Both the position numbers and the translations under genes were made by a program. A DNA stretch of 64,000 nt from Escherichia phage Esco_phi_B-01. Where the stretch lies: sequence record OP292222.1; one strand, given 5' to 3'. The notes under the pieces were generated by a model that made no database searches, was not told where the DNA came from, and saw only the letters and a list, made by a program, of their open reading frames with translations. Shown piece by piece: positions 13,049 through 56,216 of this stretch; position 1 is the stretch's first letter; each line of letters starts with the position of its first letter.

Positions 13049-13053
13049 GTTAT

Positions 13054-13080
13054 GGGACTCTTCGGAGTCCCATTTTTGTT
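13054..13080 (+). terminator. intrinsic terminator
   Basis: GGGACTC-TTCG-GAGTCCC hairpin followed by ATTTTTGTTT. Confidence 0.8.
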
Positions 13081-22334: not shown

Positions 22335-22342
22335 ACCCCTAA

Positions 22343-22368
22343 AGGAGAGCGTAAGCTCTCCTTTTTTG
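22343..22368. terminator. bidirectional terminator between the alt region and gp54
   Basis: AGGAGAGC-GTAA-GCTCTCCT hairpin flanked by AAA upstream and TTTTTGTT downstream. Confidence 0.75.
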
Positions 22369-34341: not shown

Positions 34342-34375
34342 AAAAACGGGAGAGCGAAAGCTCTCCCGTTTTGTT
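34342..34375. terminator. bidirectional terminator between convergent hoc genes
   Basis: AAAAA-CGGGAGAGC-GAAA-GCTCTCCCG-TTTTGTT. Confidence 0.85.
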
Positions 34376-37662: not shown

Positions 37663-37690
37663 AAAGGGACCTTACGGTCCCTTTTATTTT
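37663..37690. terminator. bidirectional terminator between rnlB and the gene 24 operon
   Basis: GGGACC-TTAC-GGTCCC hairpin flanked by AAA and TTTTATTTTT. Confidence 0.8.
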
Positions 37691-40627: not shown

Positions 40628-40649
40628 ATGGGAGACCGAAGTCTCCCAT
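40628..40649 (-). terminator. hairpin/terminator downstream of gene 23
   Basis: ATGGGAGAC-CGAA-GTCTCCCAT perfect 9-bp stem; U-tract weak. Confidence 0.55.
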
Positions 40650-51063: not shown

Positions 51064-51926
51064 GGGTTTCTCCTTGGTGCTGGAGGTTCTGGTTCAACAG
51101 GCACCGGAATATCTTGTGAATATGTTTGAATGGATTTACCGTCCCATTCTTTTTCTTCTACACCTCTAGGAACTACTTCGCTATCAACCGATTCAAAATT
51201 ACCCTCAGGAGCGAGTTCTTTAGAGTTGGCAAAGAAATCAAGATAAATGGTTTTGATTTCGCCTTCCATTTCTTTAACAGGAGGATATAGCCATCCGTTA
51301 ACCTCAAACATCATAGACCATTCCAAGCGACGACGTGAAGTGGTATCGCCTTCTAATTGTTCATCCATTGCTATAGATTGGAACACAATACGAATATCAC
51401 GGTCAAATTTAATTTCGTTTGTATAGAGTTCGGTAATTGTTGTATTAAAGTGAGGTTGGAAATACGGCATAATTTGTTCCACAATCTGGAACATATCATC
51501 TTGAGTTCTAGTGTAAATACCCAGTTCAAAAATCATTTTTACTGGAGTAGGAGAATATTGGCTGACTCGTTTACGAGGGTCTCCATTCTCAAATTGAATT
51601 TGTGTTCTATTTTGAAGAGCTGTTTTGTATTGTGAGTTATAAAGCATGTCAACCATTTGGAGGTTCATACGTGGAAGAACAGTTTCAACCTTAGCTTTTT
51701 GTTCAGCCCTTTCTTTTGGCGTCATATTAGGATTTGGGATATTCTGTACTGCTGTCCACTTACCTAAATTAGCCATAAATCTTTCTTTAGAAGCATACGT
51801 AATAGGAACCTTAATAAATTTAAGCCCTGTATCTTCTCTTTGACGTGCTACTTGAACATGGGAAAATAAATCACCCATCAAAACAATATAGCGACGTAGC
51901 GAACTATTATACCAATGTCCAAACAT
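51060..51926 (-). CDS. 15: gp15 tail sheath stabiliser / tail completion protein
   Basis: 288 aa from ATG 51926 (track start is TTG); SD AGGAGG; matches T4 gp15 blocks ([25 protein letters not shown]). Confidence 0.8.
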
Positions 51927-51939
51927 CAAACCTCCTAAA

Positions 51940-51958
51940 ATGGCGCGGGATGCGCCAT
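51940..51958 (-). terminator. hairpin (terminator/attenuator) between gp14 and gp15
   Basis: ATGGCGC-gggat-GCGCCAT hairpin; on minus strand followed by TTTT then SD AGGAGG of gp15. Confidence 0.5.
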
Positions 51959-51965
51959 GTATTAT

Positions 51966-52739
51966 TTAATCATCTAAAAAAGCATCATCAAATGCTGTAG
52001 GAGGAGCATCTTCTCCTCTACCGTTAATCACTACATAAGGGTGTACGAATTCCGCTGCTTCAGCATTAATCTCATTAACCTCTTCATATTGGATATCAGA
52101 GATATCAGCCAACCCATCAATATTCTTAACAGGCATTAAATCAAGCTCACTGAATTCAGGAATATTAATGCCTTCATTTCTCTGTAATTCAGGACGAAGT
52201 TCTTCACCATTATAAATGAACTTGGTAGCAGTAATGCGACGCTGGACGTTTGTACCGACTTGATAGAACGGGTCGTAAGGTTGAACCCAGTTAATTTCAA
52301 ATAGGCTGTTGTCCATTGGGAAATAAATCAAATCACCCGAAACAGGTTCAGTACCGTTGCATTGATGTTTAAAAAGGTTAGGGTTAATTGTGATTGTTAC
52401 TTCATCATTAACCATCATACCGAACTTACTGAAATAAGTATTGTCACCGGAATAACCTTCAAAGGAATCCAAATAACCCGCAAACTTCCAGGCTTTAGTA
52501 AATTTGTTCTGAAGGTCTTCGCCAAATAGCTGGTCAGGATTAACGTATTCGCGTGGTATATAATAAAGCTCGATACCACGCATTTGAATAGACTCAGCAA
52601 CTAAAGCATCAGCCAATGTTTGAGTGTTCTCATGGCGATAAAAGTTGACGAAAGGGTTCATTATTTCAGTTTCGTTCGTGTTAGCATAGCCGGTGTTATT
52701 TTCCAGCTTAGCAAATAAACTCGAATCGAAAGTAGCCAT
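51966..52739 (-). CDS. 14: gp14 neck protein
   Basis: 257 aa; size and position as T4 gp14. Confidence 0.8.
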
Positions 52740-52741
52740 AA

Positions 52742-53677
52742 TTATCCAATTAAAATAGGTGTTGGTGGGTCGAGCAAATCTAATTCTTCGCGAAGACGTT
52801 CTTTTTCTAAACGAGCTTCTTCAATCAATCGAATGCCGTCTACAGTGGTTCCGCCGGCTAATTGCATACCTTGGTGTTTGGCTAAAATATTACCATTGAC
52901 CTCTTTAACTAATGCCGTAGCGTAATCTTTGACCCAACGGTTATTATACGCGCCATCTTGTAGTCCAAGGTCCTCACCAGCTCTCATTCCAGAAATTCGA
53001 CGCGCAGGATTGTCCCAAATAGCCCCAGGACTCCATTCATTTTCGTCACAGCCACCAGAAGCATATCCATATCCTGCTGTATTCCCAACCATGGAATCAA
53101 CGCCATTAAATGAACGGGTATAAACTTCAATTACAATAAAGTCGCCTTTAACAAAGTTGCCCATTACCTTCAATTGTTCAGTGGCATCATTATACCAATA
53201 ATCAGGCAGCGGAACCAAAAGGTCCTGCATCATAGAACGATATTGCATTAATTGTGTAAAATAGCCAAGGTCGGCGCCGAAGGCATTAGGTCCAAAACTA
53301 TTACATGAAGACCCAAGACCACCATTAATACCTGCCAAACCTAGTACAAAATCTGTAAACCATGGATAAGTTGCTTGCCCGTCCATAGATGTTAAAGAGC
53401 CAACGTTAGTTCTCAAAATTTGTGTTACTGCAAATATATTACGTCCTTTAAGGTCGAATACGCCATTACGGAATTTTTCTTCATCGTCATGGCCAATATA
53501 AAAAGCCTGATAACCTTTGTTATACCCGTTATAATGGTATTCGCCGTAGAGCTCCAGGGCGCGCTGGATGCAATCGTATACTTGGTCAGTAGTTACTTCA
53601 ATATTTGTAATCGGTGCACCCAGGCGGCGCAGAATAGCGTCCTTGAGTTGCTTAGGGTTATATGATTCACTTGCCAT
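52742..53677 (-). CDS. 13: gp13 neck protein
   Basis: 311 aa; size and position as T4 gp13. Confidence 0.8.
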
Positions 53678-53698
53678 GTTTTATTCCTCTAATAACCG

Positions 53699-53706
53699 TA
53701 TTTATA
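53699..53706 (-). promoter_or_regulatory. late promoter for gene 13
   Basis: Minus-strand TATAAATA just downstream of the wac terminator. Confidence 0.6.
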
Positions 53707-53710
53707 GCAA

Positions 53711-53731
53711 AAAAAGGGCCGAAGCCCTTTT
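53711..53731 (-). terminator. terminator after wac
   Basis: AGGGC-CGAA-GCCCT hairpin flanked by AAAAA and TTTTATT, right after the wac stop. Confidence 0.75.
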
Positions 53732-53732
53732 A

Positions 53733-56216
53733 TTATGGTGCTGAGTTTAAAGTCACAAAATCAGACAATAATACCCATGCGTTATCAACCAGAACATACG
53801 GAAGTCCATCTGCGGCAGGAGCCACCGGTGGACGTTTAGATAATTCTGTTTCTAAGGCTGTAATTTTACCTTCGGCAGCGGTTAAACGGGTTCCTAAGTC
53901 AGCAACTTTATCAGATTCAACTTTAACATCATCCAAACCTGTTTCAAGAGTACCAACTTTACCTTCGACCGTGCCTAAACGGGTATTAATACCTGCTACC
54001 TTATCGGATTCGACTTTAACAGCAGCTAAACCTGTTTCAAGAGTACCAACTTCACCTTCAACAGCGGTTAAACCAGACTCAAGGGTAGTTATTTTACCTT
54101 CTGCCGTAGTTATTTTACCTTCAGCCGTACCTAAACGGGTATTGATTCCTGCCACTTTGTCAGATTCAACTTTAACTGCTGCTAAACCAGACTCAAGGGT
54201 AGTTATTTTGCCTTCAGCTGTACCTAATCGAGTATCAATTCCTTCTACTTTATCGGATTCAACTTTAACATCATCCAAACCTGTTTCAAGGGTAGTTACA
54301 CGAGTTGTTAAAGGAGCTATTTTAGCAGTATCAACTTTAACTGCAGCCAAATCAGACTGAAGGGTAGTTATTTTACCTTCAGCTGTGGTCACACGAGTTG
54401 TTAAAGGAGCTATTTTAGCGGTATCTAATTTAATATCAGTAATTTCGCCTTCATTAGCTGCTACTCGCCCGGTTAAAGTAACGATATCACCTTTATTCTT
54501 GGTTATATCGGCTTTAATAGGGGTTAATTGTGATTCTATAGAACTCACATCTAAAGCCAAAGCCGTAACATCAGAATCGGTTGTATCCGTCTTGGTTTCC
54601 AATGCGGTTATTTTGCCATTAATAGTTACGTCACTTTCTTCCAAAGCAGTAATACGATTATCTTGCTCGGTGTCTTTGGATTTTAGCAAAACGACATCTG
54701 CTTTAATTTCTCCTACCGAAGTGTTTAAAGCACCAGTTCTAGTATCAAGAGAAGAAATGGAGGCGTCATTAGTATCGACTCTGGAAGTTAAAGCGGTCAC
54801 TTTACCATTGGTAACAACCAAATCGGCTTTAACAGTTTCTATTTCTGTGGAATTATTAACAACTTCGGCCCATGCCGCATTTCGACGTGCATAGAGTTTA
54901 CCATCAGAAGGCGCGTCACCTAATTTACCTTGCATCTGGGTTTCTAAAGAAGTAACCGCATTAATAAGACCACGTTCTTCTACGGTAGCTCCGTTAGGGT
55001 TCGTTCCGTCAACCTTATTTGTGAGCTTAAGCAAAGTACCTTTTATACCGGATTGGTTGTTACCAATTTCTACCTGAATATCCTGGATGGACGAGGTAGA
55101 TTGGTTTGCTTGAATAATAACATCATTCAAACGCTTATTAATTGTGCCAGCAGCAGGAGACACTTCACTACCAAGGCGTCGATTAATATCGGAAACCTGG
55201 AAACGAAGCCCTTCACTAGAACTATTACCAACAACGGTTTTTAAATCATTTACATCAGTACGAAGCCCACTTAAACGTCCATTAATAGATGCTGGTGCAG
55301 ACTCAGAACCGATTTGAGTTTCTATAGAAGTTACTCTAGGTTTTAAATCATCATTAACCGAATTTTCTAAGGTAAAGGTTTTGCTTTCTAAAGTAGTTAC
55401 TCGGTCCTTTATAGGCATACCAGAGAAATCAATATTATCCTTAATTTCGTCAATAGCTGTATTAAAATTAACTGCAGCCGTTTCTAATACTGAAATTCGG
55501 GTATATGCAGGTTGTTTACCTACCGTATCAGAATGTGGTCCTAATTCGGCGCGAATTTCATTTAATTTAATACCCAATTGTCCAACATCAGAATCTTCAT
55601 AGTTTCTTTCAAGGGTATCAATACGAAGACGATGGTCCACCAATTCAGTGGTATTATCCATGATGCGGCGTTTTATACCAGTGGCTTCGCTAGTTTCACC
55701 CGGAGGTAAAGGATTGCCGTTTATATCCTGGTCCTCATAGTGACCAATTTCATTTTTAAGAAGAACAATATTTTCACGTACAGTTAAATATGGGCCGTCT
55801 TGTAAAGGGTCATGATATCCAACATCTTCACGCAAGAAATCAAAATTGGTTGTTAAGGTGTCCAATTTTTCTGTTGTATCTTCGGTGACTTTTTTAAGGT
55901 CTACAATATCAACACGGTTTTTCTCTATTTGTTGAATGATGGAAATATCTGTTGACATTTCTAAAGCGTCATTGATATTATTAACGTTTTCTATAAGCTC
56001 ATTAACTTTATCAGCAGTTTTTAAATCGTTGGCATCAAGAGCTTCTACGTTTTTCTGAACTCCTAAAGCAGCAGCGTTCAAATTACCTTCATTGCCGTAT
56101 TTTGTTTTTGCTGCAGACATACAATCACCCTCGCGTATCCATTGGATACGCTTTTGAGGAGCATCAGGTACGCCGTCAACAAATGGTAACTCACTAAGTT
56201 CCAATTTGTTAATCAT
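53733..56216 (-). CDS. wac: fibritin (whisker antigen control), repeat-expanded
   Basis: 827 aa; heptad coiled-coil repeats; C-terminal foldon-like sequence DGLPYVLVDNAWVLLSDFV as in T4 fibritin. Confidence 0.85.
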   Translation of the reverse strand: MINKLELSELPFVDGVPDAPQKRIQWIREGDCMSAAKTKYGNEGNLNAAALGVQKNVEALDANDLKTADKVNELIENVNNINDALEMSTDISIIQQIEKNRVDIVDLKKVTEDTTEKLDTLTTNFDFLREDVGYHDPLQDGPYLTVRENIVLLKNEIGHYEDQDINGNPLPPGETSEATGIKRRIMDNTTELVDHRLRIDTLERNYEDSDVGQLGIKLNEIRAELGPHSDTVGKQPAYTRISVLETAAVNFNTAIDEIKDNIDFSGMPIKDRVTTLESKTFTLENSVNDDLKPRVTSIETQIGSESAPASINGRLSGLRTDVNDLKTVVGNSSSEGLRFQVSDINRRLGSEVSPAAGTINKRLNDVIIQANQSTSSIQDIQVEIGNNQSGIKGTLLKLTNKVDGTNPNGATVEERGLINAVTSLETQMQGKLGDAPSDGKLYARRNAAWAEVVNNSTEIETVKADLVVTNGKVTALTSRVDTNDASISSLDTRTGALNTSVGEIKADVVLLKSKDTEQDNRITALEESDVTINGKITALETKTDTTDSDVTALALDVSSIESQLTPIKADITKNKGDIVTLTGRVAANEGEITDIKLDTAKIAPLTTRVTTAEGKITTLQSDLAAVKVDTAKIAPLTTRVTTLETGLDDVKVESDKVEGIDTRLGTAEGKITTLESGLAAVKVESDKVAGINTRLGTAEGKITTAEGKITTLESGLTAVEGEVGTLETGLAAVKVESDKVAGINTRLGTVEGKVGTLETGLDDVKVESDKVADLGTRLTAAEGKITALETELSKRPPVAPAADGLPYVLVDNAWVLLSDFVTLNSAP
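53830..54500 (-). repeat. intragenic tandem repeats in wac (coiled-coil expansion)
   Basis: Imperfect tandem repeats visible in DNA and protein (repeated KVESDKVAGINTRLGTAEGKITTLE-like units); boundaries approximate. Confidence 0.6.

Follow-up and report, generated by a model that had tools for sequence, protein, structure and literature searches.

Between genes 14 and 15 of Escherichia phage Esco_phi_B-01 lies a short GC-rich hairpin whose structure is conserved, with covariation, among related phages. It adjoins the Shine-Dalgarno (SD) sequence of gene 15, has no terminator-grade U-tract and is dispensable. It is an element of an ordinary type and belongs to the general class of stable intercistronic hairpins long known from T4 mRNAs. 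With a probability of roughly 0.4, we infer that it serves as a leader or intercistronic stem-loop of gene 15, which acts post-transcriptionally, in RNA stability or processing, as a barrier to nucleases and causes leaky termination at most. All positions given below without further specification refer to the window, i.e., the whole stretch of 64,000 nt of sequence record OP292222.1 that was analysed.

The gene 14/15 junction

The 2-kb region around the hairpin is 99% identical to the corresponding region of the Escherichia phages EcWhh-1 and JS98 (Dhakavirus, Tevenvirinae), and the RefSeq record of JS98 annotates the same genes, i.e., gp13, gp14, gp15 and gp16. On the minus strand of the window, the list of open reading frames (ORFs) contains, in this order, wac (56216-53733), gp13 (53677-52742), gp14, encoding the neck protein (52739-51966), gp15, encoding the tail completion protein (51926-51060), gp16 (51063-50572) and gp17 (50588-48753); gp14 and gp15 are also identified by the JS98 annotation, and gp15 in addition by its conserved N-terminus. 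The start codon of gp15 is the ATG at 51926, from which the N-terminal sequence MFGHWYN is read, and all homologues begin with MFG(H/Y)(W/F)YN. The TTG at 51929, which was listed mechanically as the start of gp15, was rejected because all homologues start at the ATG. In three deposited records, the annotated gp15 start is located 14-16 codons downstream of the MFG(H/Y)(W/F)YN start, which has an SD sequence of its own; the gp15 coding sequences of RB69 (NC_004928, L097, 4060-4104), Entb_45 (L006, 793-841) and Acinetobacter phi1_092060 (L011, 757-805) appear, thus, to be N-terminally truncated.

On the minus strand, the stop codon of gp14 (TAA, 51968-51966) is followed by an AU-rich single-stranded spacer, ATAATAC (51965-51959), and then by the hairpin, which, from sequence and folding, consists of the 5' arm ATGGCGC (51958-51952), the loop ATCCC (51951-51947) and the 3' arm GCGCCAT (51946-51940). 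A short U-run of three residues (51939-51937), or four if the closing A-U pair opens, separates the stem from the gp15 SD sequence AGGAGG (51936-51931), which has a GGAG at the same position in relatives, and the tetranucleotide TTTG connects the SD sequence to the start codon (51926-51924). The stem comprises 7 bp, including five GC pairs, with a 5-nt loop, and the calculated free energy of the isolated stem-loop is -11.0 to -11.6 kcal/mol. An earlier note on this DNA had placed a hairpin at 51940-51958 on the minus strand, between the gp14 stop and the AGGAGG and start codon of gp15, and these coordinates and gene identities are exact. The same note had read TTTT after the stem. Only three T follow the 7-bp stem, as T51940, which is already the last base of the stem, had been counted twice.

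The hairpin is located between two cistrons inside a transcription unit that is driven from P13, an exact late promoter (TATAAATA) found by a motif scan upstream of gp13 at 53706-53699 (minus strand). P13 is the sole exact late promoter able to drive genes 13-14-15-16-17 as far as 49259-49252, where the scan detected another one on the same strand inside gene 17. Between P13 and 49259-49252, no exact late promoter for gp15, gp16 or full-length gp17 was found on the minus strand, and these genes depend, therefore, on polymerases that pass through the hairpin. Upstream of this unit, the wac (fibritin) ORF (53733-56216, minus strand) encodes 827 amino acids, while wac of T4 in NC_000866 measures 1464 nt (~487 amino acids). 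The ORF in the window contains many tandem coiled-coil repeats (...LETGLAAVKVESDKVAGINTRLGT...), which also produce a long spurious antisense ORF at 53662-54360.

The junction hairpin is not a product of chance. When perfect hairpins of at least 7 bp with at least five GC pairs and a loop of 3-8 nt were counted, the window contained 15 of them, compared with 1.32 +/- 1.25 (maximum 6) in 100 dinucleotide shuffles, and nine of the 15 are intergenic, though intergenic DNA makes up only a few percent of the window. Among 1000 composition-preserving shuffles of the 39-nt spacer, eight folded equally stably. The fold of a 91-nt context was not unusually stable (z = -0.8) and did not support a larger structure; the significance is, therefore, confined to the local hairpin. 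A search of positions 51700-52200 against Rfam in E-value mode returned only two chance-level matches, both with E > 4 and far below the gathering scores. The stem sequence has no second copy in the window. The palindrome ATGGCGC-N5-GCGCCAT has at least 124 matches in IMG/VR, with unrelated loops and in GC-richer contexts, and only three in a gp15 context among the matches listed; since these are scattered chance matches, the idea of a mobile repeat was rejected. Six members of the enriched hairpin class are located in coding regions. One of them, in the interior of gene 16 (small terminase) at 51020-51002 (minus strand), is a perfect 7-bp hairpin with six GC pairs, UCCCCGG-CUUGA-CCGGGGA.

Conservation and loss of the stem-loop

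The junction was compared in 16 annotated phage genomes, in 80 IMG/VR loci retrieved with a gp15 profile and in the window, together representing 74 distinct upstream 80-mers. A hairpin was considered orthologous when its free energy was -7 kcal/mol or lower and it ended at most 26 nt before the gp15 start. Such a hairpin is present in 37 of the 74 distinct sequences, with 22 different inner stems. The stem reads, for example, GCGCCC/GGGCGC in Gaprivervirus, AGCCCGG/CCGGGCU in PEi20, GGGACC/GGUCCC in Jiaodavirus KPV15 and AGGCC/GGCCU in Gelderlandvirus, whilst RB69 contains the hairpin ACCGGUC-GAAA-GGCCGGU followed by UAGGAG, and IMG/VR lineages have stems such as ACGGCUC/GAGCCGU, UGGCCC/GGGCCA, GGGGC/GCCCC and GGGCC/GGCCC. 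The hairpins of all 16 lineage representatives are significant when compared with shuffles of their own spacers (p = 0.001-0.008). Plain MAFFT alignments of the spacers brought the stems out of register, and a loop-anchored set of 10 tetraloop lineages was, therefore, used. In this set, 96.7% of the cells pair, compensatory changes occur in five of the six pairs and none of 500 shuffles matched the covariation, but these counts lean towards structure because the alignment was fitted to it.

The loops belong to the UUCG or GNRA tetraloops in 16 of the 37 cases (eight UUCG, five GAAA, two GCAA and one GGAA), which suggests that thermodynamic stability, rather than a specific sequence, has been selected; the loop in the window, AUCCC, has 5 nt and is not a tetraloop. 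Within Dhakavirus, all 14 positions of the stem are invariant and the loop reads ATCCC, ATGGT or GTGGT. Sense-strand G-U pairs are present in the stems of RB69 and of the loci L026, L045 and L046, but they are weak evidence, because sense-strand G-U pairs were the only ones that the hairpin finder permitted. The pattern indicates that selection acts on a stable RNA helix and not on a particular sequence.

Such variation has consequences for the possibility that the hairpin is a protein-binding translational operator of the type described for T4 gene 43, which is bound by the gene's own product (PMC3014915). The gene 43 operator is a hairpin located just upstream of, or overlapping, the ribosome-binding site (RBS), and the hairpin described here adjoins an SD sequence in the same manner. 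However, the loop bases of the gene 43 operator are conserved and are recognized by the protein, whereas loop and stem of the gp15 hairpin vary freely: three different loops are found among Dhakaviruses with 99-100% identical gp15, 22 different stems are found across the lineages, and Rfam yielded no match. An operator function can, therefore, be given hardly any credence.

The hairpin is absent from T4 and other Tequatroviruses. In T4, the junction does not differ significantly from shuffles (p = 0.2), and only a remnant, AGCCCGG, is left, while the sequence UUAGGAG is retained without a stem. A different situation is found in three Dhakaviruses, vB_EcoM_005, ABTNLsp5 and KIT01, where a 588-nt ORF replaces everything from just past TAAATAA to the ATG of gp15. 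Its product of 195 amino acids is an HNH-type homing endonuclease according to PHROGs (PHROG 655, E = 7e-39); Pfam gave no match for it. The replacing segment is found at 405-1003 in vB_EcoM_005 (NC_055783, L218) and at 100-703 in L019, corresponding to 51965-51924 in the window, and the endonuclease ORF ends in a stop codon that shares bases with the ATG of gp15 (TAATG). As the hairpin has been replaced by an endonuclease gene in these phages, it is dispensable, and its role is modulatory rather than essential. Together with its absence from T4, the replacement also implies that any benefit it provides is modest. Moreover, an insertion of 588 nt in viable Dhakaviruses marks the 14/15 junction as tolerant to insertions, which may be useful for the engineering of JS98-type therapeutic phages.

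From the sequences compared, homing-endonuclease genes seem to have entered the junction repeatedly, in at least two lineages. This raises the question of whether the palindrome is an element at the DNA level, i.e., a target for recombination or for a homing endonuclease, or a neutral relic of cassette turnover. Besides the acceptance of endonuclease genes in the spacer, such an explanation would account for the observations that the insertion in vB_EcoM_005 takes out exactly the hairpin-SD segment and that substitutions are clustered in the first six codons of its gp15 (atgttcggtcacttttat vs. atgtttggacattggtat), as expected near a homing site. However, compensatory changes, stable RNA tetraloops and G-U pairs on the sense strand are signs of selection on an RNA helix, the stem is invariant in Dhakavirus while the loop drifts, and the exact palindrome is found elsewhere only as the scattered matches mentioned above. 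An origin of this kind is, therefore, considered very unlikely. In another locus, L051, a similar endonuclease-like C-terminus is encoded just upstream of gp15, and L060 and L079 are unconfirmed candidates for the same arrangement.

Possible roles in termination and translation

The earlier note had proposed that the hairpin could attenuate read-through from the neck genes. With at least 5 bp, a high GC content and a loop within the range of 3-8 nt, its stem is of the kind found in intrinsic terminators, with which it also shares its intergenic location and the presence of U residues after the stem. An example for comparison within the window is the canonical terminator between wac and gene 13 (53731-53712, minus strand), which consists of AAAAGGGC-UUCG-GCCCUUUU followed by UUU and served as an internal control. 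Unlike such terminators, the gp15 hairpin is followed by only three to four U before AGGAGG, is located inside a transcription unit, has a U-tract that is not conserved and is not called as a terminator. Other canonical-looking terminator hairpins are present in the window at gene ends, mostly between convergent genes (13052-13073, 22341-22364, 34343-34372, 37663-37684 and 40628-40649); several of them look bidirectional, being flanked by A-tracts and U-tracts on both sides, and two share the closing sequence ATGGGA...TCCCAT and have UUCG loops.

In the 37 orthologues, the 8 nt past the stem contain no T in two cases, one T in 10, two in 15 and three in 10, and never four or more; typical tails are UUAGGAG, UUUGGAG, UAGGAG and CUGGAGG. 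In no other orthologues is the U-run as long as in the JS98 clade, but even there it is polymorphic (TTTT or TTT), with one T fewer in QL01-like and IME341-like genomes, while the stem is invariant. In a consensus terminator scan, the hairpin was not called on the sense (minus) strand, as TTTAGGAG contains three T in eight positions where at least five are needed. The scan called the palindrome on the plus strand only. This call is irrelevant, since there are no plus-strand genes anywhere in 40.6-64 kb, and the tail on this strand, GUAUUAUUUA, is a poor U-tract. A d'Aubenton-Carafa-type score was negative whether the stem was taken as 7 bp (-15) or as 6 bp (-3), compared with +23 for the wac-13 terminator and +25 for the hairpin at 13052-13073, although these scores are only a rough, relative guide. 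Consistently, the list of terminators predicted by TransTerm in RB69 includes the 8->9 junction and a site after gene 23, and the 14->15 junction is absent from it (Nolan et al., 2006, PMC1524935), although RB69 does carry the orthologous hairpin. The hairpin is neither at the end of a transcription unit nor followed by a fresh promoter, as genes 15, 16 and 17 are located downstream and the next exact late promoter is the one at 49259-49252. Since these genes are essential and lack an exact promoter of their own, efficient termination would starve them, and an efficient terminator is, therefore, implausible. Thus, the scan, the score, the lack of conservation of the U-run, the RB69 predictions and the nature of the downstream genes all argue against the proposed attenuation, which found no positive support. 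The absence of a terminator U-tail makes a leader or mRNA-stability stem-loop more likely than an attenuator.

The sequences upstream of the hairpin also have to be considered in this respect. A degenerate late-promoter-like octamer, ATTAAATA, overlaps the gp14 stop at 51970-51963 (minus strand). It matches TATAAATA in six of eight positions and is the sole late-like motif between P13 and 49259-49252 on this strand. In most relatives, a late-promoter-like NATAAATA is present at the gp14 stop, with an (N)ATAAATA octamer that overlaps or abuts the stop codon. This octamer is exactly TATAAATA in the loci L040-L047 and L053, AATAAATA in T4, RB69, KPV15 and Gaprivervirus, and CATAAATA in PEi20 and Melville. 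In RB69, the gp14 stop at 98005 falls within a predicted late promoter, Pl:97979 (97979-98021; Nolan et al., 2006, PMC1524935), at the same place as ATTAAATA in the window. The T4 late consensus extends from -13 to -6, and position -13 is often A rather than T in T4-like phages; variation was reported for this position and not for -12 (Nolan et al., 2006, PMC1524935), whereas ATTAAATA has a mismatch at -12 too. The 18 gene-proximal NNTAAATA motifs in the window comprise 12 copies of TATAAATA, two of AATAAATA, one of CATAAATA and three unmatched variants, one of which also reads ATTAAATA. Promoter activity of ATTAAATA in the phage studied here is doubtful; initiation at the canonical +1, should the motif be active, would place the 5' end of the RNA on the stem's first or second base. 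No promoter or terminator features are annotated for this region in the T4 records NC_000866 and AF158101, and a map of transcription start sites or a Term-seq map usable for the gp14/gp15 junction was not found in the literature on T4 and T4-like phages.

With NATAAATA located upstream in most relatives, a gp15 transcript would carry the hairpin in its leader, and a terminator placed downstream of such a putative promoter, P15, would be self-defeating. This also bears on a weaker form of the attenuation proposal, in which the hairpin is a leaky intrinsic terminator that, in this clade only, releases some of the polymerases coming from P13 and thereby lowers the expression of gp15-gp17 relative to gp13-gp14. 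A 7-bp stem with five GC pairs and a free energy of about -11 kcal/mol, directly followed by three or four U, would fit such a function, as would the finding that the longest U-run among the orthologues occurs in the JS98 clade, where the upstream motif is degenerate (ATTAAATA). Furthermore, the 7 nt between stop codon and hairpin place the latter near the limit of the footprint of a terminating ribosome, so that it could presumably still form. However, besides being self-defeating in relatives, leaky termination is opposed by the absence of a call on the sense strand and the negative rough score, as opposed to the positive scores of true terminators in the window, by the absence of a TransTerm call for the RB69 orthologue and by the position of genes 15-17 downstream without an exact promoter. 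Moreover, the U-run is interrupted by AGGAGG, is not conserved in the 37 orthologues and varies by one T even within the clade. On balance, such a function appears unlikely.

The hairpin could, alternatively, modulate the initiation of translation of gp15, by insulating its RBS against the coding sequence ahead of it, by offering a standby or stacking platform to the 30S subunit or by uncoupling gp15 translation from termination at gp14. Indeed, the distance between hairpin and SD sequence is nearly fixed, with the 3' end of the hairpin located 10-13 nt before the start codon, i.e., 1-3 nt before GGAG, in 23 of the 37 orthologues, while the distance from the stop codon to the hairpin varies from 7 to 22 nt. 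This near-constant spacing could, however, be inherited rather than selected. The earlier note had suggested that the gp15 RBS is left single-stranded. The SD sequence is outside the stem in every case, but the predicted accessibility of the segment from the SD sequence to the AUG was about equal for native, hairpin-deleted and shuffled sequences in the window and 13 relatives and, thus, not consistently higher with the hairpin. In addition, gp15 is 99% identical in vB_EcoM_005 and its hairpin-less relatives, where it is reached via the overlapping TAATG; gp15 is, therefore, translatable without an adjacent stem, and T4 maintains its UUAGGAG in the absence of one. A role in translation is, on these grounds, quite improbable.

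Possible role in mRNA stability, and comparable elements

A stable hairpin that lacks a U-tract is commonly the mark of a protected RNA end, and E. coli mRNAs are reportedly stabilized by 5' stem-loops, as in the work of Emory and Belasco on ompA. In the favored reading, i.e., that of a nuclease barrier, the hairpin would be transcribed as part of the late 13-14-15-16-17 message that starts at TATAAATA before gene 13, whereas in many relatives it would also be located a few nt downstream of a late-promoter motif overlapping the gene 14 stop. After transcription, it would form a compact obstacle at the 14/15 boundary, which may shield the 5' edge of a primary or processed gp15-16-17 segment from 5'-end-dependent RNase E, the 3' end of the 13-14 segment from 3' exonucleases, or both. 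Thus, the two halves of the operon could be given different lifetimes, while the SD sequence of gp15 is kept outside the stem. Pausing or termination at the run of three to four U would be a minor effect, specific for the JS98 clade.

The mRNA-stabilizing stem-loops of E. coli, i.e., those in the ompA 5' region and at processed operon boundaries, have in common with the gp15 hairpin a stable stem upstream of an exposed RBS and an AU-rich single-stranded stretch ahead of the stem. There is a difference at the 5' side. Protection of 5' ends usually needs a hairpin within roughly 4 nt of the end, whereas a 5' overhang of 5-11 nt is predicted ahead of the hairpin in relatives if NATAAATA fires at the usual +1. 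This overhang exceeds the threshold and argues against the barrier; a stabilizing effect at this junction is putative. Inspection of the spacer sequences by eye revealed no clearly conserved RNase E motif of the RN|WUU type.

Other likenesses are found within the T4-type phages themselves. Tuerk and co-workers reportedly described, in 1988, the C(UUCG)G class of stable tetraloop hairpins located between cistrons in T4 mRNAs. The gp15 hairpin resembles them in being a short GC-rich stem between cistrons, with a UUCG or GNRA loop in 16 of the 37 orthologues, but the copy in the window has an AUCCC pentaloop and the junction lacks a hairpin in T4 itself. The PeSL (promoter-early stem-loop) cassettes of T4-type phages (Arbiol et al., 2010, PMC2839356) share the layout of a stop codon in an AT-rich stretch, a promoter motif, a GC-rich stem-loop, an SD sequence and a start codon, and also the insertion and deletion of genes at the site. 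In contrast to PeSLs, no sigma-70 -35/-10 promoter is present on the minus strand within 51927-51970, and the motif upstream of the gp15 hairpin is of the late type and degenerate. Also, the hairpin is located between the core late genes 14 and 15 rather than in a hyperplastic, ORFan-flanking region, and it is not part of a repeated family in the genome.

A more far-reaching and, in our view, rather improbable extension is that the junction constitutes a conserved late cassette in Tevenvirinae other than T4, in which a late-promoter motif over the gene 14 stop, the stem-loop and the SD sequence would yield a separately initiated or processed and differently stabilized 15-16-17 mRNA and which free-standing homing-endonuclease genes would, in addition, preferentially invade. 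If so, it would be the late-gene counterpart of the PeSLs, serving the genes for tail completion and terminase, and the fact that it has never been studied would be accounted for by the loss of the stem-loop in T4. Tuning of the relative stability or output of the two halves (13-14 and 15-17) of the late neck/terminase operon, if the stem-loop has this effect, would provide a small example of how T4-type phages set the ratios of late proteins with no additional promoters or terminators. In practice, hairpins of this kind should not automatically be annotated as terminators. None of these implications would alter the present view of how phage genes are regulated.

A few other junctions in the window have a related appearance. 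Before gp20 and gp19, too, a GC-rich hairpin lies within 8-13 nt downstream of an exact TATAAATA and precedes the start codon. Before gp20 (46059-46026, minus strand), the hairpin is AAGGAGC-UUCG-GCUCCUU, of which the 5' arm is SD-like. Before gp19 (46612-46571, minus strand), the hairpin GUUCCUGG-UGUGG-CCAGGAAC ends 6 nt ahead of the ATG; the gp18-gp19 spacer measures 173 nt and has a strong predicted fold (-49.9 kcal/mol over 196 nt). The order is reversed at the gp8-gp9 junction (61148-61115, minus strand), where the hairpin AAGGGCC-GCAA-GGCCCUU, whose U-tail (UCGGGUUU) is weak, precedes AATAAATA and the SD sequence of gp9. At the orthologous gp8-gp9 junction of RB69, a TransTerm terminator and a late promoter were both predicted at 89887 (Nolan et al., 2006, PMC1524935).
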